From IMG/VR virus record IMGVR_UViG_3300009285_016375, positions 10,508 to 74,507 of that record: a stretch of DNA of 64,000 nt. One strand, written 5' to 3'. This DNA comes from a virus. Below the pieces are notes generated by a model that was not told where the DNA came from, did not search any database, and saw nothing but the letters and a program-made list of their open reading frames with translations. This document shows positions 7,798 through 63,667 of the stretch, piece by piece. Positions within the stretch are counted from its first letter, which is position 1. Each line of letters opens with the position of its first letter. Position numbers and translations under genes: made by a program.

Positions 7798-10700
7798 GGT
7801 GCTAACACTTTCATTGCTGTGGTTGAGCCATCGAGGCTATAGAGTGTGACCAAATTCCCGTTGCTATTGACCAACCAAAATCCGCCGGCGCCCAGCATAG
7901 CCGCCGTGGGCAGGAACGTGTTGGATGGGTAATAGGTGCCGGATTGAAATTTGGCGCTCCCGTTGGTGGTGATAGTAGCCACAGCGTTATTGCCGGGAGA
8001 ACTCAGTTGGAACAGGGTAGCCGCGCTGTTGCTGACCGACAGCGGGGCCAGGGGGGCCGTCGTCCCGATGCCGACGTTTCCATTAGTCACCAGCACTCCG
8101 CCGGCGAAGGTCCAGTTGGTTCCATCATCCCGCAATCGGATGGTGCCGTTGCCGTCGGCTAGAATGATGTTGTTCGACACACCGCTTGAGACCGTCGTGT
8201 TGGCCCCCAGAATGGTGTTGCCAGAGCCGTGGGCCAAACCTTTGCCCGACCAATAACCCAAAGCAGTGTTGTTGGCGCCCGTGGTGATGTCGTACAAAGC
8301 CAGGGATCCAATGGCGACATTCCAGTTGCCGCTATAACTCAGATGGAGCGCATCAGTGCCGACCGCGACGTTATAGATGCCATTGGTGTTCTGAAACATC
8401 GTGTCCGCCCCGACGGCCGTGTTTAGCAGGCCGCTGATATTATTGAGCAATGTGTTTTGCCCGACAGCGGTGTTATTGTGACCAGTGGCGTTATACCGTA
8501 ACGCCCAGTTTCCCAGCCCGGTATTGGACACGGCTGCCGGTGAGCCATTGCTGGCGCCATCGGAGCTCCCGGCTCGATAGCCGACATAGAGGTTTGCCGA
8601 GCCAGCATCGTTAATCCCAGCATGGTAGCCCAGGTAGAAATTGTAGGACGCATCATCGAATGTGAGGTAGTCCGTCCCAGCCAAATTGGTCAGCGTGGCG
8701 CTGGCCGGCTGAAACTCGGCTGTGTTGGCGGCGATGACCACGTTGGTGCTCGAATCGTCCAGCGTTATGCCGCTGCCCGCGCTCAGCGATTTCAGCGTGC
8801 GGTTCTGCTGGAGCGGCACGTTCAGCGCCTCGGCGTTCGTCAGCGTGATTTCCGCCAGCGTCACCAAGCGGTTGGCGTCGGAGACGGGTTCCTCCCAGAG
8901 CACGTAATTGGTTTGCCCGAGGTAAAACCGCAGGCCGGGGCCGTATTCCCCGTCGTAGATCGCCTCGATGCGATTGGTCTGGCTGCCCTGGTCCGGGTCG
9001 GATGACTGAAAATCGACATAGTTGGTGATGATCGGCCCAACCAGCCGCTTGTTGCTCAGGTCTTCAACGCTGGCGATGCGACTTATGGGGTTGGCTCCAC
9101 CCAGCGTGGGGCCATTGGTGTCCCAGAGGTTGTTGCCGGGCCGGATCACGACCCCGTGCGCTGCGGTCAGAGTGATCTCCTCCTCCACACCCGCAAACGA
9201 TTCCCCCTCGAAGACGAGGGTGCCGCTGCTGATCGACGTGACGCGTTTTAAGCCGTTATTACTCGCTTGCGATGAACCGGCCACCCACACAAAGGTTGCG
9301 TTGGTGAACACGACCAGATCGTTGGTGCTGGTATTGTCCACAATGCTATCCCCCAGGAACTCCAGATAGCCCGAGAGCGTGGCGGCCGTGGTGTTCGTGC
9401 GCCCGGCGACCACCGTAAAGGCGTGGGTGTTGGCGTCGGAGGCGAGGTCGAACGCGGTCACTCCGCCCACGTACGCAATGGCGGGACTACCACCGGACGA
9501 TGAGTACAGCGACAAATTGGTAGCCACGCCACTGAGTCGCGAGACCCGCGCGTTACCTACACCATCCACGTAGGCCGTGCTGGCAAACGCGTTTGTGGAC
9601 AGGGTCGCCCAGTTTGTCAGGTTCGCCGCCGCCGGCTGATAGGAATTGGTCCAGGGCGCGTTGGTGATGGCCCCCGTTCCGGCCAGGTTCGTCAGCCAGG
9701 TGGCCCCCAATTGATACGAGTTCGTCCAGGGCGCGTTGGTGATCGCCCCCGTTCCCGCCAGGTTGGTGAGGGTGGCGCTGGCCGGCTGAAAGGCGCCGCC
9801 TGTTTCGGTAGCATCTGTGCCCCAGCCCAGGTTGCCGCTGCCGTCGTTGGTTAAAATAGAGGCGGCCCCACCCTGGCCGCTGGGCCAATGGTAGGACACC
9901 CCGCGAATGGTAGTGTTGCTGCCGGAAAGAGTGAGGGCCTGCGCGCTGAGCAAACCATTGCTGCTGATGGTCAGCGCCGCGGGCACGCCGGGCGAACTCA
10001 ATTGGAACAGGGTCGCAGCGCTGTTGCTGACCGACAGCGGGGCCAGGGGGGCCGTCGTCCCGATGCCGACGTTGCCTTGTTTAAAAGTCAACACATTATA
10101 CCTTACCCCATTTATGTTTTGTGAAAAGTCATATTGTATGTGATCGCCAGCTGGACGGTTTTGGGTTAGGGTCAAATCATATAAACTGTTTAATGACCAT
10201 TTTTGAGAAGTAGTAGTAGCGCCGTCATCGGTAGTTTTGTAAATATCTAACAACGCCCCCGGCGCTGTCGTCCCGATGCCGACGTTGCCGTTGGTGGCGA
10301 CGATGACGGGATTGCCTGCACTGCTCAGCACACGGAACGTATCCGTGGAGGTTGCTCCCTGAAACCTGACGCCGCCCAACACGTCCAGCTCTTCCACGGG
10401 AGTCATGTTTACTCCCAGGTTACCGGCGTTGACCATTGCGTCGCCGTGGACGTGGAGAGTCTCGGATGGCGCATTAGTTCCGATGCCGACGTTGTAACCG
10501 AAGGTGGCATCGCCCGTGGTGCGGTTTATAACGAGATTGGATCCGACCAGGGTGCCGCCCGTGTTGACGACAAAATGCCCATCGTCGGCGCGCAAGCCCA
10601 GGCTCCATTGGCCGGTGCCATCATTGTCGAACGTGATCCGGTTGTCGGTGCCCGAAGGTTGCACTATCGAGACGCCGTTAGACCCGGTCGCAGTGTAGCC

Positions 10701-49600: not shown

Positions 49601-49990
49601 TGGGCGCAAGGCGAGACCCTCTTGGGCGCCGCTCAACCACGCAGCGCCATCCATGAAGCCCGCCCGGCCGGCCGGGCGGGCGGAGGAGGAGGGGGAACAG
49701 GAACGGGCGGGCAGGGCTGGGACGGCGTGAAACGGGTGCCAGCGCTGAGCGGGCAGAGCGGGCGCGGGCGGCGATTTGGACGCTTGGCCAGTCCCGTGCC
49801 GCGGGTGTTATCGACCCGGAGCGCGGTGTCCGTGGCCAGCCGGGTGGGCCGATCCTCCCGGCGTTGGGCGGGCCGGGTGCCGCCGATGAGCCTGAAATCA
49901 CCCCGCCTGCGCGCGCCCAAAATGCGGCGTGCGCGCGGGGCGCGGCTGCCGAGATGGCCGCGGGGCACGGGCCGGGTGCGGATTTATTGA
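40619..49990 (+). CDS. Giant internal virion / polyvalent protein (3123 aa)
   Basis: Gly/Ala-rich N-terminus with EEAAQ motif, ART-like insert, degenerate metallopeptidase EEIGH, hydrophobic C-terminal region and Arg-rich tail. Confidence 0.75.
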   Translation: MGYKIIEPEPVLGRYRVIEPETNRPRYRVIEPDQLITPMGTPETPDDYSIPAEVGKGIVRGLARGVAAVPRFGGDVADAVRRWVGSSPEAPGPLDTAIGGRKSALSLLGDVIDETVAEALPARKPESFWLGVVPEAIGQVVPMAGAGLGAGLARKGAGLAAQMSAATAASTAVGFMAEFDDAFQRETERQQKAGENDPDLAFVKALNYGTIAAALEGRFGAGRLARKWVERFGGESINELAKRGVSGGMIGRFLGRTAGDAATQGLEEAAQRLAQNVIIEGPLLPPEKLMEGIGTEGGAGAVVGTLLGFPANIPRRGRIPVQRMPSRLPPESLAPGHVQSEALVELGVGPAPDERGRIPITTGNQYAIQKPSPAALPVGQTPQAGAPVEPDEETTGKDTGGVAPVWTPQATAAARQALRGNLQGRTVNVPQEQWAAPSVHLQYLFGAQAPTWNDLVAAGVLELTDPAAPAAPGDLGVRLKREQPANAPTEPAPAASPSLKVWKAGQTGIGRGGMQYFALSKELADKFSEGGEFGRPGAVVTETQLPEGSMVFDWKASTPEERIELKASSWIEPDGYPNWHWFENTPGIQAKLRELGYNGIKLSEGESNGLSIAILPESKPAAPAAVKAGELQGAVPPEAQPPELMTPDYSAPSVTQDFSPAPAPATANVTQLSDATMRPSAPRTADPGTGPTPSQQAAATGAGVILHNEQPEIELQLDELAQSIPFDPAATIAGPVWQDVSGQDFSSAESQRTLLAGARAEGVGGGGSRQATQQSHRLVVLTNRQDGSRHAASVYGSHRRVFATDPATGQGVPLDTLLPKWQPTHWFYSGPARNRYRLALSPAHFAALRAQGEAHQQKLDSYEAPSEVTGPAVPSEEGEEGEEGEGLPAKPKPSARKPIAEETKLGQVVASADLTFTLAQAEELHELLAWRPGDSEQDIRDALADNATARPVKNLLIAVSDKFYRNEYKALAAITDPAAKPAAKDAFDATVADRAGGLVAGLLGATDGRPGFASALAGALAPTETQRPTPERAAPGADTSQPEVAPGTPQPLTAQETAEAARLGVREVTVQTEAEALAAINGQRQASGQPTQAAQGTEGALAFYDHGVIYYVRGQLDDDALFREVRAEEIGHHILSGPQAQEVIGQIADDPAFGAEMEGMAQRYPRFEGESEGAYRLRLANELLAQSRRTDRNLFQRLLDWIVERLAQWPGMGEWIKGSASNRQGILRALMRRAEAGFSAAGPTAQAMAATISPQRQAEIIAAQAEADAARAGGRAQVPAREATLFHAAQVLRRGAEATLQLWRQAVTRLDTLRYHNKEYVRARKTLEALRSFLQTEYQKLSQGDRLVLNLPEKVPGILDGEFVNALQTLGVGTRSAEAGAGEFVIPADTEETAGRLSRPPGLGALDANRIRALQAEVQTENQARGYAALLQEQARLRVWRRWGTQFDLGEEYQQAWVSRQRAVEERMKRIRQGNPEAARRGQQMSRDRITRGEVGEFDQASEETWLSRLGEWQAQQRAYESGPVRRAFRQGLEGARALADQWQTRLATFEEAMADPTMPEDARRRLAGEVLASWRQMQAEQQRFENLYAGRAGLLKQMRQLEDQLASAKITQGEAEGLIGRAIAALSSEAERAWAVIPTGLERVLLDNAEAIRLAARRLAKLPAWQGTRNARAVFERLTEQGRILRQEPMGRPVMTGEPLVFAAELGLSEEAYTAMLWALEHSESFRDAVETLAELADQKLAEVPVVPVQRIAELLEAGQAEQAQAAFEQLRRKLGNQAVAAEKAQAPLTRQLLKLAVQVRALDLGRQLFQAVLGEPGQPQAELTRLVRQVIELTLDHPPMIEANGDGTTYHAFPGQPAVTVRAASWLSPTKTQRSVSQWYEQAAEYLAGFEAAELAQAANPGQPTAEQQGYDYGVVLGLREALEQQDSDTNHALLLDEDRYQMSRWQGWSQKFSYGQQIWTTITHAAGLGRGALHRWALALGRGQAIGSRLLKRDFRGRHEARTAALVSHPECENNLERYQLLVMNPMGHLGRQWDSPLRVGYALDSGSVVTREDLAFLRLTERFGQAVRREITEQEAGEPGQRYLRGGVERQQGGQVVSRSLSLGVGDYALARVLNWGGFLNALRELAAAYHGPDHKLQSVGAETNLRLTQEPAALEAAAGWRVAAFWNEHLADLVRHVSDAGRTDSAVSRQPPLMRAALELRRRWEVGETGRPADLQELVEQLTAALPVNFDPGVPRARYVREQLLAELAEYGRGALAAEQEVVAEVKRASAEAEYDPVRVFKSEFTQEAARLRLPSRWYNYGAVREGEFHDLVARALSERAIQFRAALDRTVDGMQALRAQARDVSQPVAFESAQYPDLHNFSRALANLERLQDQMKAAGTARFREPGFWQELFGFFQGGLLSGVDVGFGNVILNAGFAGWVLAHLPGQTRRMTLGRELAGLFRGGLVLVNNVLEHTETGRALRRLWPASLRGFLAEQGALLEEVQRLGFSHREPFLAEARRLWQQALEFRGTEEQQEATAWSQAGRRVRAVLRLGSAALRKVGATALGDLATNATLVGQAGMVADAVRSMAGRYQARDLSQPFNAADPLWQVSEADVPHAWTAQRSQRLALLRLIFERADVSLERVLYRYSKAAQAAARTGGESPEVFTPEEHEKLKFALLALLNQPTSVSRQFKAQYDRTFKFLVTFQGWVANAANTYAELYQQTGRTRSLPPAARAATHLLPLLGTTLLFALVFGSINQWWRRKVKKHLYGIDTQVASILERDTWSSPGTAFRGAAVGTLSALPIAGDLALNWLNATVGGRGFDPASRVVGLNLMSSIFSAFRAAAGQPWPDKWMILTDFMVRPHFGLSGPLLYAGSPRYRGQREVSNVRRLIEDKAHTVLGIERRRSGQRWAGSDLSPTYAMRMKMASAAVREDWEEFGQQSQRLVEWHRQAGAAEPAKAALRDFQAMHPVARGAGRKLEAEEFARISSALSASQRQQVDHARQAWAQGETLLGAAQPRSAIHEARPAGRAGGGGGGTGTGGQGWDGVKRVPALSGQSGRGRRFGRLASPVPRVLSTRSAVSVASRVGRSSRRWAGRVPPMSLKSPRLRAPKMRRARGARLPRWPRGTGRVRIY

Positions 49991-50035
49991 ATCCACTCCA
50001 GCAGCAGCACGATCAGGAACAGCAGGAGAACAAAC

Positions 50036-50440
50036 TTGTCGAACGACGTCATAGAGGTTCATGGTTCGAGGGTGCAGGTGACGCGTCAGGCGCTGGCCGC
50101 CGCCCTGGCCGAGGAACTGGAACGGGCGCTGGCGGGGTATCGGCCCTGCGCGTTGCTGCCCGCTTTCGTCTGGCGCCGCATTGCCAAGGCGGCGGTGCGC
50201 GCGCTTTTGCAACTGATCACGGAGTTCATTGGCCGCGGCCAGCCCATCGCGCTGCCGGGGTTCGGCTCCTGGCGCTTGATGCGGCGGGCGGCGCATCTGG
50301 GCACCTGCCCGGCGGCTTGGGGGCCGCACGGCCACCCCGCGCAGCGCGCCGAGCGCTATCTGGTGCCAGCCCACACCAAGGTGGTGTGGCGGCCGGCAGA
50401 GCGGCTGCGGCAGCGGTTGTTTCGGGTACAGGTGGAGTGA
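50036..50440 (+). CDS. HU/IHF-family DNA-bending protein (divergent)
   Basis: ITEFIGRGQPIALPGFGSW...RAAHLGTCP...VPAHTKVVWRPAERLR matches the HU core. Confidence 0.8.
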   Translation: MSNDVIEVHGSRVQVTRQALAAALAEELERALAGYRPCALLPAFVWRRIAKAAVRALLQLITEFIGRGQPIALPGFGSWRLMRRAAHLGTCPAAWGPHGHPAQRAERYLVPAHTKVVWRPAERLRQRLFRVQVE

Positions 50441-50468
50441 GAGCGAAACAACAAACAGCGCCCTTCTT

Positions 50469-50792
50469 GCCACAGCATTCGCCAAGTTGTTTGGTTGCTG
50501 CGAGGCGGCGCTCGTGACCGAGCCGAGCCGATGGCAGGCGCCCACAGCAATAAAGTCGCTTGGTTGCTGCGAGCAGTTCGGCGCCAGTAAGGCGGATGCC
50601 GCGCAGCGTCCCCACAGCATTCACCAAGTTGTTTGGTTGCTGCGAGGACGGTTTCCGCTGAAATGTCATGGCCCAGCAGGTCAGCCCACAGCATTCGCCA
50701 AGTTGTTTGGTTGCTGCGAGGACGGAGCGGGCCTCGTCCACTTCGGGGTTCATTTGCCCACAGCATTCGCCAAGTTGTTTGGTTGCTGCGAG
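50469..50792 (-). CRISPR. CRISPR mini-array: 5 repeats, 4 spacers of 36-38 nt
   Basis: Repeat CCCACAGCATTCGCCAAGTTGTTTGGTTGCTGCGAG (36 nt, + strand) at 50469, 50541 (33-nt variant), 50611, 50685, 50757; unique spacers; the most degenerate copies are distal to the effector gene. Confidence 0.92.
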
Positions 50793-50912
50793 GGCGGTGC
50801 CTGGGCAGGCTGTATCCTCGCGCTTGCAAACCGCGTTCCGCGAGTGCCTGGGCCGGCAAGCGTGCCCAACCAGACTCGCGCTGCGCTTTGTGGTAGCGCA
50901 AAGAATTGATTA
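50793..50912 (-). ncRNA. Structured leader / candidate tracr- or scaffold-like RNA
   Basis: Hairpins CGCGAGT...ACTCGCG and TGCGCT...AGCGCA; 50815-50831 is partly complementary to the repeat. Confidence 0.5.
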
Positions 50913-52154
50913 TCACGGCTCGCGAGCGGTGTCAAGGCTTTCCACCGCACCGGCGCACTCGCAAGCCATCCCAAACTCACGCAGCTTGTTGGCCAGCATG
51001 ACCTGCAACTCGTGCCAGGGAAACTCAGGCAGATAACCGCCTTGAGTTTCATCATAGACAACCGTGTTGACGCCTTGGCGCTGAGCGAACTTGGCCAAGG
51101 CTGAGCAGGATTGCTGCATGAAAGATCGGACCCGACGATGATGCTTGGCCACTTGCGCCTGGCGGTATTCTCCCAACCGCGGCGGTTCGCCCAAGCGGAC
51201 CTCGTATTTTGAGTCGTCGGAAAGCCGGTCCAACTGCCGGCGATGAGCAGCGATCCAGCGGCGGACGTGATCAGCGTGCAAGCGCCACGGTTCCCGCCCT
51301 TCCACCTCGGCGATCCAGAAAGCATCCGGCGCCCTGCTGAGCACCAGCCGGCGCTGAACCGGGGCCGGGCGCTGCGGTTTGGGCAGCCACGCCACCAGCT
51401 TGACCATCACGTCGTAGCACTGGCGGGCGCCGCCACCGGCTGCCCGGTCTGGCAAGCCAGGCCGATGGGTGTTGCCAGAGACCCTTTTGCGGTAGAGGGC
51501 CAATTCGCCAGGCACGGCTTGGCCACTGACAATCTGCTCGAAGGCACCCAGTTGGCGGCGGAAGCCTGCCCCACCCCGCAACCGCAAACTGATGCGCTCG
51601 CCGCCCAAACGCACTGAGACCACGGGCACGCGTTCGGTGTCCGAGAGCCAGCGCGCTTGCCAGGAGGCGTTGTGGGCGGGGTAGGGAACCGGGTAACGGA
51701 ACCAGGGCAGGGTGGCGCTGCCCGACCAGATGGTGGCCCAGCGGGCGGAGTTGTATTTCTGTTGGGCCATTCGGGAAACGGCCGCCGCGGCTTGGCTTTC
51801 CATGTCCGGCCGCCGCTCACGAGCGATCTGATAGACGTTCAGCTTGGGGGCGGGCGGGAGCTTGGTCAGGCTGGGTGAGCGCACCACGTCGGCCTTGGCC
51901 AAGGCGGTCAGCACGGTGTTGGCCACTTCGGTGGCTTGAGCCCAGGCCGCGCCCAAGCGGGCGCGGAAGGCCGGCCAGTCCAGGCCGATGGGTGAAGCCA
52001 CCGGGAAGGTGACGGCCCGCAGAATGTAGGCATGGCGCCAACAGGTCTGGCACCAAGGCTGGTCCTGATGGCGTTTCCAGCCGGCGGGCACGCGCTGGCG
52101 CCCGGCTTTGGTGGGTTTGGCGGCGGCTTCCCGGCCGCACAGGTGGCATTTCAT
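50913..52154 (-). CDS. Nuclease-dead, C-terminally truncated TnpB/Cas12-like protein with N-terminal Zn ribbon
   Basis: Bridge-helix/RuvC-II-like HHRRVRSFMQQSCSALAKFAQRQGVNTVVYDE...FPWHELQVMLANKLREFG; RuvC-I Asp absent, no RuvC-III; adjacent to the CRISPR array. Confidence 0.78.
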   Translation of the reverse strand: MKCHLCGREAAAKPTKAGRQRVPAGWKRHQDQPWCQTCWRHAYILRAVTFPVASPIGLDWPAFRARLGAAWAQATEVANTVLTALAKADVVRSPSLTKLPPAPKLNVYQIARERRPDMESQAAAAVSRMAQQKYNSARWATIWSGSATLPWFRYPVPYPAHNASWQARWLSDTERVPVVSVRLGGERISLRLRGGAGFRRQLGAFEQIVSGQAVPGELALYRKRVSGNTHRPGLPDRAAGGGARQCYDVMVKLVAWLPKPQRPAPVQRRLVLSRAPDAFWIAEVEGREPWRLHADHVRRWIAAHRRQLDRLSDDSKYEVRLGEPPRLGEYRQAQVAKHHRRVRSFMQQSCSALAKFAQRQGVNTVVYDETQGGYLPEFPWHELQVMLANKLREFGMACECAGAVESLDTAREP

Positions 52155-53095
52155 AGCAGATGTCCGGTGAGTTTCTGCCGGCCTTCTTGGGCCAGGGGGG
52201 CGCGCACGTAATCCAGGCTCTGCCGCGGGCTGGCATGGCCCACTAAAGCAGCAATCTGTTCCGGGCTCAAGCCCGCCGCGCGGCAGTGCTCAATAAAGGT
52301 GGCCCGCAGATCGTGAATGTTCAGATGCAACAGGCCCAGTTCGGCGCGCAGTGCCCGGAATTGCAGGCGCAAGGCTTTGGCCGGCACGCGCCGCACCCGT
52401 TCCGGGAAGACGAAACGCTCGCCGTTGGCCCCGTTGGCCCGCGGGATGGCTTGCAGGATAACCGCCAGAGGCGGGGCCAATGGAATGACCACGCGCTGGT
52501 GCTGCCGTTTCTTGGTCCAGACCGTGATCGTCCCAGCCTCCAGATCCAGGCTGTCCCATTCCAGGCATTGGACGTCCGAGGGGAAGCGCAAGCCCGCGTG
52601 GACGCAGAGGGCCAAGGCCGCCTGCCAAAATTCCCAGCGTTCCAGCCGCTGCCCGGCTTGGGCGCACTGGCCGGCGGCTTGCTGGGCGCGAGCGCGATCT
52701 ATCCGGGCCTGGATGGCGGTGAAGAGGGCCTGCACCTGGGCCCGGCTGTAGGTGCCACGGGGGCGACTTTCGCGCAGGGCATGGGGCAGGGCCTCCAGGC
52801 GCAACTTGCGGAAGCGGGCGGGGTTGCCGTGCAGGAGGCCGGCGTCGCCGAGAAAATCGCACCAGTGTTGCAAGGCGGCCTTGCAGATCTGGCGGGTGGC
52901 CGCTTTCCAGGGCAGGGCGGGGTCCTCCAGGAAAGCGCGCACGCTGGGTTTTGTGATGTCCGAGAGCCGGGACGGCTGGGTGCGAGCCAGATACCAGCCG
53001 ACGTAGTTGGTGTAGATTTGGGCGGTGGAGGCGCGCACGTCGCCTTCCTGTTGCAGGTGGTCGGTCCAGCGTGCTAGGGCGTTCAGGGGTTTCAT
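52151..53095 (-). CDS. Tyrosine recombinase/integrase (not IntI type)
   Basis: Core-binding domain (ASTAQIY...GNPA) and full catalytic set GLR, K, HDLR, VGH, Y; start moved to MKPLN. Confidence 0.93.
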   Translation of the reverse strand: MKPLNALARWTDHLQQEGDVRASTAQIYTNYVGWYLARTQPSRLSDITKPSVRAFLEDPALPWKAATRQICKAALQHWCDFLGDAGLLHGNPARFRKLRLEALPHALRESRPRGTYSRAQVQALFTAIQARIDRARAQQAAGQCAQAGQRLERWEFWQAALALCVHAGLRFPSDVQCLEWDSLDLEAGTITVWTKKRQHQRVVIPLAPPLAVILQAIPRANGANGERFVFPERVRRVPAKALRLQFRALRAELGLLHLNIHDLRATFIEHCRAAGLSPEQIAALVGHASPRQSLDYVRAPLAQEGRQKLTGHLL

Positions 53096-53102
53096 CGCGG
53101 GT

Positions 53103-53122
53103 GCTGAGCTGGGTCGTTCGGC
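53103..53122 (+). other. attC-like right half-site at the attI-equivalent position
   Basis: GCTGAGC-TGGGTC-GTTCGGC, identical to the right arm of 55493-55579, 7 nt upstream of the integrase ATG. Confidence 0.7.
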
Positions 53123-53123
53123 G

Positions 53124-53381
53124 TCAGATAATCCTCGCGCAGGCTTCGGACTCCGCGAGTGCGACAGCATCGTCAAGCGAGTCAGGTGCGGGAAAGACAC
53201 CTACTCTCAGGAAGTTACCTTCCCGCGCGTACCAGTGTCCGGTTTTGACGGTTTTGCCGTCCGCAGGCTCCCAGCCGGGGAACGTATTGCGAATCGCATC
53301 ACGCGGGGTCATTGCCGCAATGGTCTTGCTTTCTTGCACATGTCCGATCCGGTAGTCTTGCAGTTGCACTATGTATGTCAT
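53124..53381 (-). CDS. Cassette ORF, hypothetical
   Basis: MTYIVQLQDY...; stop abuts the attC half-site. Confidence 0.6.
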   Translation of the reverse strand: MTYIVQLQDYRIGHVQESKTIAAMTPRDAIRNTFPGWEPADGKTVKTGHWYAREGNFLRVGVFPAPDSLDDAVALAESEACARII

Positions 53382-53399
53382 ATTGTCTTTCCATTGCCC

Positions 53400-53487
53400 G
53401 CCAAACAAGACACTGGAGCGGACGGCGGGGGGCCGCTTCAGCGAGCGGGGCGTTACGGGCGCCGCCGCTCAGTTCGGGTCGTTCGGC
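53400..53487 (+). repeat. attC-like site A
   Basis: GCCAAAC...ACTGGAGCGG...CCGCTCAGT...GTTCGGC, extra base in L''; 65 bp identical to site B. Confidence 0.85.
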
Positions 53488-53488
53488 G

Positions 53489-53692
53489 TCACACCTTGCC
53501 ATGCTTCCCGGACTCGTCGGAGATGTCAGCGTTGACCGCTGCACTCAGATTGCTGTAGCTGGGCAAGCGGACCGCGCCCGGTCCATCCGGTATCGGAGAC
53601 AGGTAGTGCGTTGTCCCGTCCTCGTAATCGCGGCGGATGATTTTCCGGGAAAAGTGGTTTAGCTGTCCGGTTTCGGTGTCGGTATGAGTCAT
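53489..53692 (-). CDS. Cassette ORF, hypothetical
   Basis: 67 aa, lies exactly between sites A and B with a purine-rich RBS region. Confidence 0.65.
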   Translation of the reverse strand: MTHTDTETGQLNHFSRKIIRRDYEDGTTHYLSPIPDGPGAVRLPSYSNLSAAVNADISDESGKHGKV

Positions 53693-53711
53693 TTTTCTTT
53701 TTCTTTCCCCC

Positions 53712-53799
53712 GCCGAACAAGGTCACTGGAGCGGACGGCGGGGGGCCGCTTCAGCGAGCGGGGCGTTACGGGCGCCGCCGCTCAGTTCTGTCCTTATGC
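53712..53799 (+). repeat. attC-like site B (R' G mutated to C)
   Basis: GCCGAAC...ACTGGAGCGG...CCGCTCAGT...CTTATGC. Confidence 0.8.
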
Positions 53800-54029
53800 T
53801 GATCGGCGTCCATCGCGGCGGCGATCAGCTTGAGGTCTGCGTGGTGAATTTGCCTCGCTGCAAGTTCCTTGCGTTCCCTGGGTCTCAGGGGTCGCGGCTC
53901 GCACAGCGATCCGTCGGGGCGCACGGGGTAGGCTGTGCCCCCGTCTTCCGGTGTCACGATCGTTGCCCATTCACCACCGGCAAAGTGCGTCCATCCTTCT
54001 TTGAATGTTGGTGCGTAAAGATTTAGCAT
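53766..54029 (-). CDS. Cassette ORF, hypothetical
   Basis: ATG lies in R'' of site C; C-terminus reads into site B. Confidence 0.6.
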   Translation of the reverse strand: MLNLYAPTFKEGWTHFAGGEWATIVTPEDGGTAYPVRPDGSLCEPRPLRPRERKELAARQIHHADLKLIAAAMDADQHKDRTERRRP

Positions 54030-54116
54030 AACAAGTCGATGCAGGCAACGGCGGGTGTGGCCTGCGGTGTCAATCGTGCGTCTCAGGTCCGCCGTGCCTG
54101 ATCTCGGTCGTTAGCC
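54026..54116 (+). repeat. attC-like site C (canonical)
   Basis: GCATAAC-AAGTC-GATGCAGGCA...TGCCTGATC-TCGGTC-GTTAGCC. Confidence 0.9.
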
Positions 54117-54326
54117 GACTACCTCTTTCATGGCCTTGAGAAGCGTTGAACCTTTTCCTTCGCAGCCGTCCGCTGCCCATATTTCAACGGCGGGCTGGCC
54201 CATGTTCGGCCAGCCCTTAATTGTGACCGTTGTTCCTTCGGCGGTCTTTCCATTGCACCACGCGAAGAAGTCGGCTAACAAGGCGCTGGGAGTTGCGGGC
54301 TTCGTTGGCGCGTTTTTCTTTTTCAT
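54111..54326 (-). CDS. Cassette ORF containing a residual attC left arm
   Basis: Stop TAA lies in R' of site C; GGCTAACAAGGCGCTG at 54273 is inside the frame. Confidence 0.6.
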   Translation of the reverse strand: MKKKNAPTKPATPSALLADFFAWCNGKTAEGTTVTIKGWPNMGQPAVEIWAADGCEGKGSTLLKAMKEVVG

Positions 54327-54369
54327 AGTTTCTTATTGATCTTTCATTTTTCTCTTTCTTGCCGGGAGC

Positions 54370-54472
54370 GCCTAGTTCGGCGCTCCAGCGAACGGGAGAG
54401 AGCCGTCACGGGTTTGGGTTTTGGGTTGTCTCAACGGCGGCTCTTTCCCGTCGTTGATCTCTGTCGTTCGGC
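54370..54472 (+). repeat. attC-like site E (degenerate R'')
   Basis: GCTCCAGCGAACGGGAGAGAGCCG...CGGCTCTTTCCCGTCGTTGATC-TCTGTC-GTTCGGC. Confidence 0.75.
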
Positions 54473-54643
54473 GCCATTTGCCTTGAGTCGCTCGACATAT
54501 TTTGCCAGCGACTCATACACTTCAGCTTCGAGCACGATCCGGTTGCGCGGGTCGTCAGGGTAGCCGTTTTCAGTCGTGAGCACGAGGCCGAAGCCGTCGA
54601 AGTCCACATGCACACTGTCACCGAGGTATTGCTTGTTGTTCAT
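54431..54643 (-). CDS. Cassette ORF, conserved small phage protein
   Basis: YLGDSVHVDFDG...LTTENG...NRIVLEAEV motif; ends inside site E. Confidence 0.7.
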   Translation of the reverse strand: MNNKQYLGDSVHVDFDGFGLVLTTENGYPDDPRNRIVLEAEVYESLAKYVERLKANGAERQRSTTGKSRR

Positions 54644-54692
54644 ATCACTCTGTCGTTAGCGCATCGGTTCAAGGCCGCACTCGGCTCCACCG

Positions 54693-55061
54693 TCATAGCA
54701 TCGCGCCGGTTAGAGATTCATTCAGGCCGATTTCTTGGCGCGTGATTACTGCCGTAGCTTCATCGGCGCGACGGGTGTGCTTCCACCTTGTTTCGCAGGA
54801 CTCACACTGCGCCCAGAGTATCGCGCCCCAGTCAGAGTGCCAGGCCCGCGAGCCGCAGGTTGGGCAGGCGAACACGTGGACGCATAACAAGACGCCACGG
54901 ACTACCGTCGCTGAGCTTGGGTCGTTCTGGCGCAGAGCGGCGCGCTTGGCTGTTCGGGCGCGCACCATTGCCCGCGCTTGGGCTTTCGTGAGCTTGCGGC
55001 GGGACTTCTGACCGCCCTTGCGCCCGATGTCCGCCAGATACTTTCGTGCTTCCGGGTTCAT
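54693..55061 (-). CDS. Fusion ORF: basic GRKGG module, translated attC remnant, Zn ribbon
   Basis: IGRKGGQKSRR then QNDPSSATVVRGVLLC (attC remnant 54882-54930) then CPTC...CESC. Confidence 0.6.
   Translation of the reverse strand: MNPEARKYLADIGRKGGQKSRRKLTKAQARAMVRARTAKRAALRQNDPSSATVVRGVLLCVHVFACPTCGSRAWHSDWGAILWAQCESCETRWKHTRRADEATAVITRQEIGLNESLTGAML
54882..54930 (+). repeat. Short degenerate attC-like site inside an ORF
   Basis: GCATAAC...GTCGCTGAGC-TTGGGTC-GTTCTGG. Confidence 0.6.
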
Positions 55062-55186
55062 GCTTTGATGGCGTATTCGCCGTCAGCGCGGACTTCAAAC
55101 CAGCGGCGGACACCGCCACGTTTCACGGCGGGCGTGTAGATGGTCGCCGTCTTGTAGTAGCGGACTTCCCCGCCGAACAAGGTCAC
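55058..55186 (-). CDS. 42-aa ORF starting inside attC-like site F
   Basis: GTG at 55186 overlaps the upstream stop (GTGA); its stop overlaps the next ATG (ATGA); MTLFGGEVRYYKTATIY... Confidence 0.55.
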   Translation of the reverse strand: MTLFGGEVRYYKTATIYTPAVKRGGVRRWFEVRADGEYAIKA

Positions 55187-55264
55187 TGGAGCGGACGGCG
55201 GGGGGCCGCTTCAGGTTGATGGGGTTGCTCAGTGGCCCGCCGCCGCTGAGTTCTGTCGTTCGGC
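55172..55264 (+). repeat. attC-like site F
   Basis: GCCGAAC...ACTGGAGCGG...CCGCTGAGT-TCTGTC-GTTCGGC; left ~45 bp identical to site B. Confidence 0.85.
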
Positions 55265-55584
55265 GTCACTCGCTCCCGGCATGTTCGTTCGTCTTTACGG
55301 TCGCCACCGAACGGGATGCTGTCTTCCCAGTCCACCGCTATTTGATCGAGCTTTTGCACTTCATGCGCGCAAACTGCGGACGGGCCGCTGCCATCTGTTC
55401 CGGCACAGCGTTCCGCTTCTTCTTCCGCCAGTCGTTGGTTATCGGCAACTATCATCAACTCATACTCGACGGTTACACGCCAGAGACGTAACGCCGAACC
55501 AGGCGCTCCAGCCAATGACTGTCCCGCTGGGCGGTCGGACAATTCGGGAGTCTGGGATGGCTGAGCTGGGTCGTTCGGCGTCAC
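55183..55584 (-). CDS. Cassette ORF that reads through two attC-like sites
   Basis: N-terminal 30 aa come from site G, C-terminal 27 aa from site F; the cargo has no stop of its own. Confidence 0.6.
   Translation of the reverse strand: MTPNDPAQPSQTPELSDRPAGQSLAGAPGSALRLWRVTVEYELMIVADNQRLAEEEAERCAGTDGSGPSAVCAHEVQKLDQIAVDWEDSIPFGGDRKDERTCRERVTPNDRTQRRRATEQPHQPEAAPRRPLQ
55493..55579 (+). repeat. attC-like site G
   Basis: GCCGAAC-CAGGC-GCTCCAGCCA...TGGCTGAGC-TGGGTC-GTTCGGC. Confidence 0.88.
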
Positions 55585-55775
55585 AGTCCGTAGTCATAGC
55601 TTTCGCCGGTTTTCGGGCCGCGCGTGCAGCGCAACACGAAGGTGTAGTTTCGACCGAGCTTGCGCTCGATGTCGCGCGCTGCTGCCGAGTTGAGGAACCG
55701 CTGCGGTTGCGTCGTCTCGTGAACGAGTTGACCGCGATAGGTGATCTGCCAGTGGTTTCGCATTTTGGTTTTCAT
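55581..55775 (-). CDS. Hypothetical protein
   Basis: MKTKMRNHWQITY...; stop abuts site G. Confidence 0.55.
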   Translation of the reverse strand: MKTKMRNHWQITYRGQLVHETTQPQRFLNSAAARDIERKLGRNYTFVLRCTRGPKTGESYDYGL

Positions 55776-55855
55776 GGTTAGCTGCCTCAGTCCACCGCGT
55801 AGAGACACGCTTGGCCGGCTGGTATCGGTTCAAGGCCGCACATTTTGTCTTTGGG

Positions 55856-56194
55856 TTAGTCAGTCCTCGACCTGATGAACTGAGCCCGTGCGGCGGGCGT
55901 GTTCTCCAGGTTTTCCCGGCCCAACCAGGCGAAATAATCCGCAATGGACACCAGCACGAACTCCACTCGCGCCCCGCGCTTGCGCAACTCGCGGGCAAAC
56001 GCCTGATTGATCAGCTCCTGCTCGCGCAAGCTCAAGTCCGGCTCCTCGGACTTGAGGAAGCGGAGCGTGTCCTCGTCGTCGTAAGCGGCCACCCGCACCC
56101 GCACCCGCACCCCGGGCAATTGGTGGGGCAGGTCGAGTTGCGCGCAGATCTGCGCGGCCCGAATGCGAGCTTGTTTCCAGGTCATGTTTGTCAT
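55856..56194 (-). CDS. Hypothetical protein
   Basis: 112-aa ORF in the minus-strand operon. Confidence 0.6.
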   Translation of the reverse strand: MTNMTWKQARIRAAQICAQLDLPHQLPGVRVRVRVAAYDDEDTLRFLKSEEPDLSLREQELINQAFARELRKRGARVEFVLVSIADYFAWLGRENLENTPAARAQFIRSRTD

Positions 56195-56463
56195 TTTACC
56201 GCCGGCGCCTGCGGGAACAACCCGCCGCAGGCATTGGCCGTGAGGAACAGGCCCACCTCGACCGGCAACCCCACAAACCCCATCACGCCCGAGGGATCCT
56301 CGGGCTGATGGACATGGACCGTCAAGTTCCCGTCAGCCACCAGGCTGCAGGCGCCGGCCAGGTCGTAACCGTGCCGGGCGCTTGCGTCCCGGATTTTCGC
56401 GGCCAGGTTGTGGGCCGCCACGGCAAAATCCCGTTGCTCGGCGCTCAGCTCGATCTCTTCCAT
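56191..56463 (-). CDS. Hypothetical protein
   Basis: MEEIELSAEQ... preceded by AAAGAAGAA; ATGA overlap downstream; start uncertain. Confidence 0.5.
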   Translation of the reverse strand: MEEIELSAEQRDFAVAAHNLAAKIRDASARHGYDLAGACSLVADGNLTVHVHQPEDPSGVMGFVGLPVEVGLFLTANACGGLFPQAPAVK

Positions 56464-56584
56464 CAACCGTTCTTCTTTGCACATACCTTTATGTTTCTCT
56501 TGCGACTTTCCGGGTCGCGTCCGGGGCAGCTTCATTGCTCCGTTGGACCGCCGCACATTGCGGCGGCCCCGTCGGAAAAATGAG

Positions 56585-57091
56585 TCAGGAAAGGGGCCGC
56601 GCTCCGACGAGCGCGGAAAACTTGTCACTGCGCCAGCCGTCTGGCTGGCCCCGGCTGCAATCGCCGGCATTTTCGCCGGGGCCCAGGAACACGACCCGCT
56701 CGGCGCCCGCCCGGCGGCAGTGCGCCGCGGCTGTCTCGGGTGTAGGCCAGGAGCCAGGCAGGGTGCGGGTGCCCCCGTGAATGTCGAGCGCGCACGTGAA
56801 CCGCCCGTTCTCCGCGCGCACCACAGCGATGCGCCCATAAACCCAGCGATGCTCGGGGGGCGGCGCGAAAAGGGCATCCGCCAGCAGCGGCCCCAGTTCG
56901 GGCAGCCGGCGCGCCAGGAACTCGGTCGGGTCCGGCACGTGTTGCGCCAGCCAGGCCGTCAATTCGGGCAGTTTTTGGGCCAGCGTACTGGCCCGGCTCT
57001 GCCAGCGATTCGCCCGGCCTGGCCCGGCCCAGAACGTGACGTGCAACAGCCGGCCCGACGGCGCTCGTGTCGATGCGACCTTGACGCTCAT
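56585..57091 (-). CDS. Hypothetical protein
   Basis: ATGA-coupled to the VWA gene. Confidence 0.55.
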   Translation of the reverse strand: MSVKVASTRAPSGRLLHVTFWAGPGRANRWQSRASTLAQKLPELTAWLAQHVPDPTEFLARRLPELGPLLADALFAPPPEHRWVYGRIAVVRAENGRFTCALDIHGGTRTLPGSWPTPETAAAHCRRAGAERVVFLGPGENAGDCSRGQPDGWRSDKFSALVGARPLS

Positions 57092-58347
57092 GCGGCCTCC
57101 TCGATTTTGACCGTGCGCCCGAACGGCGCCCGGCGGTCGCTAGTGGTCACCCAGAGCACCGGGTAACCCGGCTCCTCAGCCGGGAACTCCCCGTCCAAAT
57201 CCGTCAGGTACACCAGACAGACCGGCGGCACCGCCTTCTCCGCCAACAACCCGAACACCGGCCTGAAATCCGTTCCGCCGCCGCCCGTCGCCTGCCGCTC
57301 AATCGCGTCGCCCGGGCAGTACTCGCGCACCTGCTGCACGACCGCGTCGCAGCAGATGTCCACGAGTGCCTCGGGCTGGAGCTCGTCCAGGCACCACTGC
57401 TGCTCCGCGCGGAACGCGGCCAACAAGTGCTCGCCGATGCTGCCGGACGTGTCCACGGCGAACACGATCCGCCCCGCCCGCTCCGAATGGAGCGCGGGCA
57501 GAATGAATTCCGCGTCCGCGTAGCGCGTGTTCGGCCGGCACCAGGACCAATCGTCCTGGGCGCGCTCCCGGAGGAAATCCCGGAGCACCGCGCGCCAGTC
57601 CACCCTGGGCCGGGTCAACTCGCGGACCAACCGCACCAGGCTGGCTGGCACATGCCCGCGGCCCTTGGCCAGTTCGGCCGCCTGCTGGGCGGCCTGCGCC
57701 CACTCCTGCCGGAGCTGCTCCGCCTCGGCCTGGCCGTCCTGGCTGGGCTGCTCCATCTCACCCGGGGAGGGCTGGCCATCGCCGGGCTGATCGCCCGCGA
57801 CCGGATCGGCCTGAGCCGACTGAGCCGACTGATTACCGGCCCCCGCGCCGGCCTCCCCGCTCTCACCGTCGCCGTCGCCGCTGTCTTCAGCCGGCGGCGG
57901 CACCTCGGCCAGGAGCGTGCGGTAAATGGCCTCGACCGCGAGGCCCTTAAACCGGGCCTCAACCGGCTCCGCGCCGGGCGCGGCGGGAAACGTCTCGGCG
58001 CCGGCCTCCTCGAGGATCGCGCGCGCCTCCTGGTCACAGGCCCGGTTCCAGACCCGCCAATCCGCGGCGGCCGGGGCGCGCCAGATGTGCCCGAGTCCCA
58101 TGTGGAGGACCTGCTCACAGAGCACGGATGTGATCTGTGCGTCGCTCAGCGACGCGCAATACTCCGGGTTGACCCGCAGGTCAACCCCATCCGAGGAGAA
58201 TGTCTCCACGGCGGGTGACTCCGACACTGTGAGCCGGAGTGCCAGGCAGGCGAAAAACGGCTCGAACCGGACCAGCCGGCTGAGCTGGCGCTCGATCCGA
58301 ACCACCTGACTGGTGGCCGGGGTCGGCTTGAGGAGGGGTGCATTCAT
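57088..58347 (-). CDS. Metallopeptidase-like plus VWA-like protein (DUF2201 type)
   Basis: EPFFACLA, SDG.DL..NP, EQVLH (degenerate HExxH), WNRACD, VDWR..LR, AVDTSGSI, GGGGTDFRPVF, YLTDL. Confidence 0.88.
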   Translation of the reverse strand: MNAPLLKPTPATSQVVRIERQLSRLVRFEPFFACLALRLTVSESPAVETFSSDGVDLRVNPEYCASLSDAQITSVLCEQVLHMGLGHIWRAPAAADWRVWNRACDQEARAILEEAGAETFPAAPGAEPVEARFKGLAVEAIYRTLLAEVPPPAEDSGDGDGESGEAGAGAGNQSAQSAQADPVAGDQPGDGQPSPGEMEQPSQDGQAEAEQLRQEWAQAAQQAAELAKGRGHVPASLVRLVRELTRPRVDWRAVLRDFLRERAQDDWSWCRPNTRYADAEFILPALHSERAGRIVFAVDTSGSIGEHLLAAFRAEQQWCLDELQPEALVDICCDAVVQQVREYCPGDAIERQATGGGGTDFRPVFGLLAEKAVPPVCLVYLTDLDGEFPAEEPGYPVLWVTTSDRRAPFGRTVKIEEAA

Positions 58348-58673
58348 GCGGCCACCTCCGTGAGCGCTGCCGCGACCAGCTTCGCCTGGTCGCGTTCCGA
58401 GAGAACTATCTCGGAATTTCGGCTGGTGTGGATCACCACACAGCCGGCGGCCGTCTGCCGGACGGCCGGGTCGGACCAGCGCCGCGGCGGATACCCGTTC
58501 CATTGTCCCTTGCGGTTTTTCACCCACTCCATCTGATCAATGGCGTGGTCAGCCCCGACGGCCCACTCCGCGTGCGCGGAGATGTAGCAGCTCCGCACAG
58601 CCTGGTGGTACTGCTCCGCCAGCCGGAGCAGCTCCATGTCCGCCATCGGCGGGAAAATAGCGGGGGTGCTCAC
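58344..58673 (-). CDS. Hypothetical protein
   Basis: GTGA/ATGA overlaps with both neighbours. Confidence 0.6.
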   Translation of the reverse strand: MSTPAIFPPMADMELLRLAEQYHQAVRSCYISAHAEWAVGADHAIDQMEWVKNRKGQWNGYPPRRWSDPAVRQTAAGCVVIHTSRNSEIVLSERDQAKLVAAALTEVAA

Positions 58674-59659
58674 AGGATCTCCTTTCCCTCGGCGCTGGCC
58701 CAACGGATGAAGCCCGCGCTGCGGGCGATGGATTTGTCGCGCCGCAGCGCGTCGCGCACGGCGAGCACGCGGAACGGCTGGGGCATCCGCCCCAGATAGC
58801 GGAGCGCAGAGTCAATGCTCTGCGCGTCCATCCGGGCACCGAGCCCGGTGGCCATGAGGTAGCGGAGCGACGGTTTCTCCGGGACGGCGGTGCCGTCCGG
58901 ATCGAGCAGGGCCGCGTCGATTGACGGCGCGGAGTCGGCCAACTCGAGGTAGCCGATCAACTCCGTCGCCGCGCCCTGGCCCACGGCCCCGGCGATCAGC
59001 TCGAAGTCGCGGACCCCTCGCGCCAGGCGCCGCCCGACCGACGCCCACGTCCGCGGGCAGGGGGAATTGGTGAGATCCCGAGTCGGGGTGAACGCGCTGA
59101 GCAGTTCCGGGCGATCCCGGAGGAAGGCGACCAGGACCGCCGGCATGTTGCCGGGGCCCAGGGCCCACTCGGACCAATCGTCGATGTGGGTCTCCAGCCG
59201 GACGATGCTGTCCCAGCGCGATTTGACCGGCTCGATCAGGCCGGTCACACCCGCCTGTTGCCGGGCGTCGTTCGTCGCGCCAACAAACGTCACTTGCTCG
59301 GGGAGCACGTGCCCATTGATCCGCCGGCCCAACAGGAGCTGCATGAGCCCCTTCTGAACGCTCTCGGATGCCTGCCCGAGATCGTCCACGAACCAGACCG
59401 TCGGGCGCGTGGATGTGATGGCGTACCAGGTATCCCCGAACGGGAGGAAGGTCGCGTGGTCCCCGTCGCGCGCCGGGAACCCCTTGAAATCCGTCGGGTC
59501 AGCCACCGCAGGGTGGCTGACGATCAGGTCTGCACCGATGTCGGTGCAGACCGACCGGATGATGGCGGTCTTGCCGATTCCCGGCTGACCGACCACCAGG
59601 ATTTGCTCCTGGTGGGAGATGGCGTCCGCCAGGACGCCGGCCAGGGCGGCGGGTCTCAC
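58670..59659 (-). CDS. MoxR-like AAA+ ATPase
   Basis: GQPGIGKT, DPTDFKGFP, WFVDDL, GATN, PCPRTW. Confidence 0.9.
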   Translation of the reverse strand: MRPAALAGVLADAISHQEQILVVGQPGIGKTAIIRSVCTDIGADLIVSHPAVADPTDFKGFPARDGDHATFLPFGDTWYAITSTRPTVWFVDDLGQASESVQKGLMQLLLGRRINGHVLPEQVTFVGATNDARQQAGVTGLIEPVKSRWDSIVRLETHIDDWSEWALGPGNMPAVLVAFLRDRPELLSAFTPTRDLTNSPCPRTWASVGRRLARGVRDFELIAGAVGQGAATELIGYLELADSAPSIDAALLDPDGTAVPEKPSLRYLMATGLGARMDAQSIDSALRYLGRMPQPFRVLAVRDALRRDKSIARSAGFIRWASAEGKEIL

Positions 59660-59772
59660 GAGGTCACCGCCTTCCGGCTAGGAGTTGTTGTTGTTGTCTT
59701 CATGCGTTTTGTTTTTCGTGGGCCGTTCGCGTTGGCCCGTTTTTTGGGTTTTGGTCGCTTGGTCGAGCGGCG

Positions 59773-59970
59773 TCATGCTCGCTCGACACCATTTACGTCG
59801 GACCATCCGCTACCATCGAACGCCTCGCCGGGCGGCACGACTACGGCACGCCGGCCCTTCTTCCGCTCTTTTGCGGCTGCGCGATTGGCGGCGGATTCGG
59901 ACGAGTAGGACGAGTCCACATCGTTTCCCACTATCAGACTGTAACGGTCATTGTTTATGAGTGTTGCCAT
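59773..59970 (-). CDS. Hypothetical protein
   Basis: 65 aa with AAAGGGAAAT RBS right after site H. Confidence 0.6.
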   Translation of the reverse strand: MATLINNDRYSLIVGNDVDSSYSSESAANRAAAKERKKGRRAVVVPPGEAFDGSGWSDVNGVERA

Positions 59971-59989
59971 ATTTCCCTTTCTGCCGGAC

Positions 59990-60063
59990 GCCGAACAGGC
60001 GCCCCAGCGACGGGGACATGCCGTTCAGCGGCATGTCCCCGTCGCTGAGCTTGGTCGTTCGAG
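59990..60063 (+). repeat. attC-like site H
   Basis: GCCGAAC, perfect 19-bp stem CAGCGACGGGGACATGCCG/CGGCATGTCCCCGTCGCTG, then AGC-TTGGTC-GTTCGAG. Confidence 0.85.
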
Positions 60064-60330
60064 CGTCATATCAGGCTTCACCCGTCGAGTGCCGAACAGC
60101 CTCTCCATCTCACCGATGTCCTCCTCAGCCTCAAGCTTTGCGAGCACGGCGCGATTTTCCTGCTCGTGTCCAGCGATCAACAGGATTTCCCTAAAGTTTG
60201 ACCGGGCGACCTCTCCATTTATGCCGTCCTTGAAATTTGCGGCGCACCACAAACATCCCGGCCCACAGGCTGCATATTCCGACAGCCTCAGCCGTCCACC
60301 GCACCACACGCATGAGTTTGTTCTGGTCAT
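60025..60330 (-). CDS. Cassette ORF with Zn-finger-like cysteines
   Basis: MTRTNSCVWC...CLWC; C-terminus reads into site H. Confidence 0.5.
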   Translation of the reverse strand: MTRTNSCVWCGGRLRLSEYAACGPGCLWCAANFKDGINGEVARSNFREILLIAGHEQENRAVLAKLEAEEDIGEMERLFGTRRVKPDMTLERPSSATGTCR

Positions 60331-60349
60331 GTTGACTTTCTTCCGGGAC

Positions 60350-60475
60350 GCCGAACCAGGTCGCTGCACCGAACAGCCGACCCGCTCTGCGATTCACGGT
60401 CTTTGGTTCATTGGTTGTTTTGTTTGCGCTCACCGCTCGCCGCCGGTCGGCTGTCGGTGAGCTTCATCGTTCGGC
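60350..60475 (+). repeat. attC-like site I
   Basis: GCCGAAC...GCTGCACCGAACAGCCGACC...GGTCGGCTGTCGGTGAGC-TTCATC-GTTCGGC. Confidence 0.88.
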
Positions 60476-60476
60476 G

Positions 60477-60647
60477 TCAATGCAGCACGCGGACCACAAG
60501 GCGGCCGTCCTCTGTGCGGATTGTGACGGGTTGCGGATTTGGCAACCCATCGGGGTCATTGGTCTGCTTGACGTACGCAATCGCGTCCTCGTCACAGGAG
60601 GCTTCGATTTTGGCAGTGCTGTTCGGGTATTCCAGGTTATATGTCAT
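60477..60647 (-). CDS. 56-aa cassette ORF (below the ORF-track cutoff)
   Basis: MTYNLEYPNSTAKIEASCDEDAIAYV...; stop abuts site I; purine-rich RBS region. Confidence 0.6.
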   Translation of the reverse strand: MTYNLEYPNSTAKIEASCDEDAIAYVKQTNDPDGLPNPQPVTIRTEDGRLVVRVLH

Positions 60648-63348: not shown

Positions 63349-63667
63349 GCACCGCCAGATATTAGGGCTCGATTCAGATGATGAACGATATACTGACCAT
63401 ATAAACCATAATGGTCTTGATAATCGGCTTAAAAATCTTCGGGTCGTAACTCCCGCCCAGAATACTTATAATCGCAGACCATATGGTCGTAGCAAATTTA
63501 AGGGTGTTTGTTGGCATAAAGGTAATGAATTATGGGGTGCCAATATTCGTTTTAAGGGAAGGGTGTATTGTCTTGGCTATTACAAAGACGAGAAAGAGGC
63601 AGCTTTAGCTTATAATAAGAAGGCCAAAGAGTTTTTTGGGGTATATGCTTATTTGAATAAGCTCTAG
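63347..63667 (+). CDS. HNH endonuclease with AP2 domain, probably N-terminally truncated
   Basis: MHRQI, DHINHNGLDNR..NLR, SKFKGV, LGYY..EKEAALAYNKKA.EFFG.YA.LN. Confidence 0.88.
   Translation: MHRQILGLDSDDERYTDHINHNGLDNRLKNLRVVTPAQNTYNRRPYGRSKFKGVCWHKGNELWGANIRFKGRVYCLGYYKDEKEAALAYNKKAKEFFGVYAYLNKL

Follow-up and report, generated by a model that had tools for sequence, protein, structure and literature searches.

A tyrosine recombinase gene in the intI position of a phage-borne attC array does not encode an IntI and has no conserved link to the array

Does a tyrosine recombinase whose gene stands where an integron would carry intI actually serve the attC array beside it? This question is raised by a 64,000-nucleotide (64-kb) stretch of viral DNA, hereafter called the window, which covers positions 10,508 to 74,507 of IMG/VR record IMGVR_UViG_3300009285_016375 and forms the final part of this 74.5-kb record, classed as a provirus. 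On the minus strand of the window, a gene for a 314-residue tyrosine recombinase begins a few nucleotides (nt) from a lone attC right arm, at the head of an array of attC sites, and is followed by a Cas12f-like gene and a small CRISPR-like array. The recombinase is not an IntI, and it has no conserved link to the attC sites or to the Cas12f-like gene. The evidence tips modestly toward a conventional phage recombinase that follows a phage-borne cluster of attC sites lacking integron integrases (CALIN), which is serviced in trans by an IntI of the host.

The identity and the polarity of the attC sites are clear. Eighteen complete sites were collected; the window holds seven of them (53398-60477), and the other eleven lie within the initial 7.3 kb of the record. 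A covariance model (R1), whose E-values are rough, was built from all eighteen. These sites are 74-131 nt long, and in each the R stem is outermost, followed by an unpaired spacer of ~5-6 nt, then by the inner L stem, which contains bulged bases, and finally by a variable loop. In their alignment, compensatory changes occur in 14 of the 15 inner-stem pairs, and extra bases lie on the left (R''-L'') arm when the + strand is read. Hallmarks of an attC site are the inverse cores RYYYAAC and GTTRRRY, a central spacer that stays unpaired, extrahelical bases in the L stem on its R''-L'' arm, and an overall length between 57 and 141 nt. The sites of the array have this architecture, and the cassette boundaries bear the canonical G|TT exchange signature. 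Over the four variable positions per site, R'' agrees at 50 of 56 with the complement of R' in the site before it, and at 40 of 56 with that of its own R'. A search of Rfam, where no attC family is present, returned noise matches only. The array is a genuine integron-type array, and, as at least two attC sites are present with IntI absent nearby, it is a CALIN.

In the record, R1 matches the + strand only. As a control, the model finds the aadA1 attC of plasmid R100 (47.1 bits, E 2.4e-9), and this match lies on the aadA1-coding (top) strand, with intI1 on the opposite strand. This identifies the + strand of the window as the attC top strand, and the recombinase gene therefore occupies the place and orientation that intI has in a class 1 integron. 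A preliminary description of this locus had placed the gene in the intI position, and the polarity of the sites confirms it.

The same description had put a lone attC right arm 7 nt from the recombinase ATG, and this also holds. The sequence from 53103 to 53126 is identical, at 24 of 24 positions, to the right arm of a complete site (55560-55583; repeat family D4), and because of this identity the lone arm is not a chance match. Of the span initially given for the element, 52151-53122, position 53122 is the end of the R' core and not of the gene, whose start codon lies at 53095-53093. Around 53103, neither the left arm nor the loop of the half-site is found on the far side, where the coding sequence of the recombinase begins. 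The canonical G|TT crossover of the half-site would fall between 53116 and 53117. The half-site is probably a truncated attC that arose from an illegitimate break at the hairpin loop.

The other array of the record ends in a lone left arm (R''-L''), at L017:7513-7535 in record coordinates, 2972-2994 bases ahead of the window. Its R'' is the complement of the preceding R' bar one base. With their lone arms at record position 7513 and window position 53103, the two arrays resemble a single segment that was cut twice, each time at a hairpin loop. The idea that a 56-kb phage body lies within one split attC was rejected, as the junctions share no core and have no matching loop halves; further against it, phage genes flank both sides in one continuous minus-strand block.

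The protein is a two-domain member of the tyrosine recombinase superfamily. It scores 53.1 bits with PF00589 (cut-off 27.1) and is the sole PF00589 match in the record. The catalytic residues R170, K196, H261, R264, H287, and Y296 are all kept and are invariant in the alignments (A4 and A5). Xer models match it weakly, and the SAM-like N-terminal domain is seen as a weak PF02899 match. The N-terminal arm-binding domain is missing; the protein begins at the core-binding domain and is not a lambda-type integrase. The IntI model TIGR02249 has a curated cut-off of 265 bits, and IntI of the bacterial order Gemmatales reach up to 474 bits; at E <= 0.01 it matches neither the recombinase nor anything else in the record. 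In alignment A3, IntI1 of R100 has ~33 extra residues, from a beta-hairpin to HxLR, of which the recombinase has none. This insertion is also missing from a XerC/D-like protein and from the nearest relatives of the recombinase, and an extra helical stretch (residues ~125-155) is common only to the recombinase and these relatives. In a tree from a quick maximum-likelihood search, IntI1 and seven Gemmatales IntI form a clade (SH-aLRT 99) adjoining XerC/D. The window recombinase falls outside this clade; its branch is long, and the group that it forms with its relatives is not resolved. Row L228 of the tree is a wrongly extracted open reading frame (ORF) and is to be ignored. The model comparison, the alignment, and the tree all bear out the earlier claims that the gene is not intI and that its product lacks the IntI-specific insertion.

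The structure model of the recombinase (mean predicted local distance difference test, pLDDT, 86.8) matches the folds of Tn1549 Int, XerA, the lambda Int core, VchIntIA, and Cre about equally well (TM ~0.45-0.5; probability 1.0). Among 1.84 billion representatives, the best match other than the protein itself has 36% identity. No close relative was found in a search of 5.8 billion proteins, and neither an exact 29-mer of the 5' end of the gene nor a protein search found anything in metagenome contigs. Judged by these searches, the recombinase is a new, very divergent, and nearly orphan member of a known superfamily. Matches of residues 271-301 (window 52200-52285) to sequences of transcription activator-like effector (TALE) repeats in the PDB were rejected as an artefact; they are summed weak matches to one repeat, with no single stretch significant.

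The attC family of the window occurs in three more viral records (G001, G002, and G003), with ~22 sites at 18.2-24.5 kb in G002. None of the three has a recombinase at the head of the array. Two of them lack tyrosine recombinases altogether, and in G002 an unrelated one lies ~10 kb past the distal end of the array, away from the head. Similarly, in 18 viral contigs that encode distant relatives of the window recombinase, no R1 attC match lies within 6 kb of the relative. A look-alike of this stretch was not found in the other scanned genomes. As far as these comparisons reach, the juxtaposition of recombinase and attC array is unique to this record, a one-off, and nothing beyond adjacency ties the one to the other.

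The stop codon of the recombinase overlaps the start codon of the Cas12f-like gene by 4 nt (ATGA). The model of the Cas12f-like protein (pLDDT 88.1) has AsCas12f (8j12_A) as its best Foldseek match (E 1.8e-17), and the natural nuclease-dead Cas12f (dCas12f) 9n9c also matches. The four spacers of the mini-array have no match in the record or in the fetched loci. Seventy-six homologues of the Cas12f-like protein were found. At 15 viral loci with such homologues, mostly with a CRISPR-like array downstream, neither a recombinase neighbour nor a nearby attC was found; the neighbours are a methylase, a helix-turn-helix protein, RusA, and proteins without assignment. The Cas12f-like gene is found elsewhere without the recombinase, and therefore, by this comparison, the block of recombinase, Cas12f-like gene, and CRISPR array is not conserved. 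In these comparisons, recombinase, Cas12f-like module, and attC array are therefore three separable things that meet only here.

A family of Cas12f-fold proteins (~400 residues, with an N-terminal zinc ribbon and a C-terminal end short of the RuvC-III position) is present on at least 15 viral contigs (L001-L015). A short CRISPR-like array usually lies 150-250 nt downstream of these genes, which have no conserved neighbour. As modeled, the family is probably a phage-borne, nuclease-dead, RNA-guided DNA binder.

By site comparison, the attC family of the window is that of Gemmatales, and the host of the phage is likely a member of this order, on the grounds of attC family and GC content. A Gemmatales metagenome-assembled genome (MAG), G006, has at least 14 R1 matches. 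In contigs of high-GC genomes, the exact attC pattern mostly gave single matches that are probably due to chance; the one informative contig was L162, from Gemmatales. Of the 201 Gemmatales genomes sampled, 94 encode true IntI that scores above the cut-off of TIGR02249, with R1-type sites adjacent, and IntI is available in the host clade. The TIGR02249 matches of G006 were set aside, being a XerC/D-like protein and an IS91-associated recombinase and not IntI. At four Gemmatales loci, intI lies on the attC top strand and the array comes after the 3' end of intI, an inverted-integrase layout that is known for Treponema and others (PMC4889954). The window gene therefore stands in the classical place of intI, and not in the place that intI has in the likely host clade. 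A candidate attI of Gemmatales lies past the 3' end of intI and before the first attC (L225, L226, L228, and L229), and consists of a palindrome (TAGATTGCG...CGCAATCTAAT) followed by ACAAGTTCGGC. Its crossover core, GTTCGGC, is the same as that of the phage attC sites. The candidate attI is unlike the lone right arm of the window, and its motif is absent from the window.

We favor the reading in which the array, a phage-borne CALIN of the Gemmatales attC family, would have its cassettes moved in trans by the IntI of the host. The recombinase would then be the phage's own, of the simple Xer/Cre/phage-integrase kind, and would act in integration and excision or in multimer resolution; its substrate is most likely an ordinary double-stranded site. 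Its gene would lie at the 3' end of a leftward early transcription unit of the phage, as the first one there that does not belong to a cassette, and transcription would reach it by reading through the cassette ORFs. The half-site would not be an attI; it would mark where an illegitimate rearrangement broke the DNA at a hairpin loop. All cassette genes with homology support are co-directional, on the minus strand, with the genes for the recombinase and the Cas12f-like protein and with the CRISPR array. The recombinase gene stands first after the last cassette, with its ATG 28 nt past the stop codon of that cassette, and no hairpin was found that separates the cassette ORFs from the recombinase, Cas12f-like, and CRISPR genes. 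From this same-strand position, short distance, and lack of a hairpin, the recombinase is therefore probably co-transcribed with the cassettes. It is probably also translationally coupled to the Cas12f-like gene, which the mini CRISPR array follows. A promoter and terminator scan gave signal no higher than shuffled sequence. Phage-borne CALINs have been published, and phage attC sites are used in trans by IntI1, a bacterial IntI (PMC9892861). Of the two alternatives in the preliminary description, the one that treats the integrase-dCas-CRISPR block as downstream cargo of the cassette transcript, with a host IntI acting in trans, thus fits better, given the shared strand, the lack of a hairpin, and the commonness of IntI in Gemmatales; what does not stand is the block as a conserved unit.

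Several observations weigh against this reading. Its main weakness is the missing candidate site for the recombinase, since neither a lox/dif-like inverted repeat within 49900-53140 nor an attL/attR-type direct repeat joining this interval to the rest of the record was found. IntI and attI were likewise not found in the 74.5-kb record. The recombinase is encoded on the bottom strand with its 5' end toward the head of the array, 21 nt from the G|TT core, which is exactly the geometry of a classical integron. The ATGA overlap suggests some functional coupling with the Cas12f-like gene. The recombinase is a singleton and so gives no conservation-based sign of function, and it lacks an N-terminal extension of ~70 residues that most near relatives have, so that it could be a remnant.

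The classical geometry would follow if the recombinase, though without the additional domain of IntI, serviced the array as its own integrase, either on folded attC hairpins or with the duplex of the half-site as an attI substitute. The lack of IntI in the record and the real G|TT exchanges at the cassette boundaries would agree with this, and the cassette ORFs, which in the phage arrays are all antisense to attC, unlike in bacterial contigs, could hint at another recombination regime. We nevertheless consider it very unlikely. The additional domain that the recombinase lacks was reportedly found by Messier and Roy in 2001 to be needed for IntI activity, and the protein stands outside the IntI clade. 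The arrays of G001-G003 have the same attC family and inverted-ORF layout without such a gene, the relatives of the recombinase are not near attC sites, and the half-site is a truncated attC, unlike the attI seen in the host clade. The new class of attC-acting recombinase that the preliminary description had offered as its other alternative thus gains adjacency only, for a generic tyrosine recombinase that has no orthologues at the other arrays of this attC family. If it were true, a second independent origin of integron-type recombination would be at hand, and a phage-encoded integron platform would be defined; the view that IntI alone recombines folded attC, by means of a special domain, would be overturned, and the antisense phage cassettes might be explained. 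The present evidence points against such action on attC.

The 4-nt gene overlap, together with a CRISPR array directly downstream on the same strand, can also be taken to mean that the recombinase acts as effector within an RNA-guided module, directed by the nuclease-dead Cas12f-like protein and the CRISPR RNAs of the mini-array. The partner has the Cas12f fold and ends before the RuvC-III position, as such a module would have it. This is highly improbable, for at none of the 15 viral loci does a Cas12f-like homologue have a recombinase neighbour, close homologues of the recombinase itself were not found, and the spacers match neither the record nor the arrays. Moreover, natural dCas12f and TldR proteins are described as regulators of transcription that need no recombinase for their work (PMC13472631, PMC13622181). 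Alternatively, the gene may be an inactive or decaying remnant from which the rearrangement at the half-site took the promoter and the N-terminal arm-binding domain. The protein starts exactly at the domain boundary that follows the ~70 extra residues of most of its nearest relatives, the attC breakpoint lies 7 nt from an ATG without an obvious Shine-Dalgarno sequence upstream, and a singleton on a long branch would suit decay. We regard decay as unlikely. The reading frame is intact with every catalytic residue present, the structure model is confident, relatives with similar scores (P0098, P0099, P0102, and P0104) also lack the N-terminal extension, and the overlap with the downstream gene suggests expression.

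The closest known systems share some features with the recombinase and differ in others. With IntI (IntI1 of R100; VchIntIA, PDB 2a3v), the recombinase shares the superfamily, the catalytic residues, and a gene beside an attC array, opposite the top strand, with its 5' end to the first core. It differs in having no TIGR02249 match and no additional domain, in its place outside the clade, and in facing a truncated attC instead of an attI. The classical layout of its gene further sets it apart from Gemmatales IntI, encoded on the attC top strand with the array after the 3' end, and from the inverted-integrase group of Treponema and others (PMC4889954), which have the opposite arrangement and are IntI. 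The two-domain fold, the SAM-like N-terminal domain, PF00589, and the full catalytic set are shared with XerA, XerC, XerD, Cre, and the cores of phage integrases (Tn1549 Int and lambda Int 75-356), and Xer and Cre also lack the arm-binding domain. The differences here are an identity of 25-36% to anything known, the extra helical stretch of the recombinase, and the dif, lox, or att site, of which none was found. Published phage-borne CALINs (PMC9892861) likewise place attC sites in phage genomes that lack IntI, and they too count DNA methyltransferase genes among the cassettes. The present record differs from them in a much larger array (18 or more full sites, where the survey set a minimum of two), in supported ORFs that are all antisense to the attC polarity, and in the non-IntI recombinase that abuts the head of the array. 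The coordinates of the features are collected in Table 1.

Table 1. Features of the window around the recombinase gene and along the attC array.
Feature	Position in window	Strand	Remarks
Tyrosine recombinase (314 aa)	52151..53095	-	ATG at 53095-53093; stop at 52151
Gap between start codon and half-site	53096..53102	.	7 nt, read from the sequence
Lone attC right arm	53103..53122	+	L' GCTGAGC; 6-nt spacer TGGGTC; R' core GTTCGGC
First cassette ORF (85 aa)	53124..53381	-	No Pfam match; stop 28 nt upstream of recombinase ATG
First complete attC	53398..53489	+	R1, 73.5 bits; folds into R stem, unpaired spacer, and L stem with bulge
attC	53710-53801	+	R1, within 47-92 bits
attC	54024-54118	+	R1, within 47-92 bits
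attC	54368-54474	+	R1, within 47-92 bits
attC	55170-55266	+	R1, within 47-92 bits
attC	55491-55581	+	R1, within 47-92 bits
Distal attC sites	59988-60065, 60348-60477	+	R1; after the 4.4-kb multi-gene cassette
Cas12f-like protein (413 aa)	50913..52154	-	Start overlaps recombinase stop; N-terminal Zn ribbon; ends before RuvC-III position
CRISPR-like mini-array	50468..50800	-	5 repeats of ~36 nt, 4 spacers
HU-like DNA-binding protein	50036..50440	+	PF00216 at E 1.8e-7; convergent with the minus-strand block

The cassettes themselves are unusual in orientation. Cassette genes were called from the GC content of third codon positions (GC3), together with a few genes supported by homology. In the four viral records (G000-G003), every homology-supported cassette gene (methyltransferase, DnaB, DUF2201/VWA, and AAA ATPase) is antisense to the attC top strand, and the GC3-called ORFs are mostly so (window 53100-60500; L017 1-7324; L077-L082). 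In Gemmatales MAG contigs and intI neighbourhoods (L162, L213-L221), by contrast, the ORFs are co-oriented with the same attC family. From this opposite orientation in phage and bacteria, the phage cassettes therefore appear to be a distinct inverted population that does not simply come from the bacterial pool. A multi-gene cassette of 4.4 kb between two attC sites has, on the minus strand (window 56191-59659), one gene for a DUF2201 metallopeptidase/VWA-like protein and one for a MoxR-like AAA ATPase. Another cassette, of 2.5 kb and likewise flanked by attC sites (L017:2960-5476, minus strand), encodes a DnaB-type helicase with a LAGLIDADG intein-like insert. The large phage-borne cassette array with inverted genes, and the phage family of seemingly nuclease-dead Cas12f-like proteins with mini-arrays, are what is of lasting value at this locus.

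The record as a whole is, on its gene content, a phage. Its phage genes encode a large terminase, an Erf-like protein, a RecE-like exonuclease, a RuvC-like resolvase, DnaB with an intein, a virion protein, and an HNH-AP2 endonuclease; the virion protein has no relatives in the viral contigs searched. In record coordinates, the genes form a minus-strand block at 1-22.8 kb, a plus-strand block at 23.0-60.9 kb, and a second minus-strand block at 61.4-74.4 kb. The record begins within an attC right arm, as does G001, and in both cases this start looks like an assembly break at a repeat. The HU-like gene is linked to the Erf-like gene by a 23-nt exact inverted repeat (window 50097-50119 and 983-1005). 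Near the end of the record, an island of low GC content (~40%; window 63368-63667, + strand) encodes a homing-endonuclease-like protein with HNH_3 and AP2 domains.

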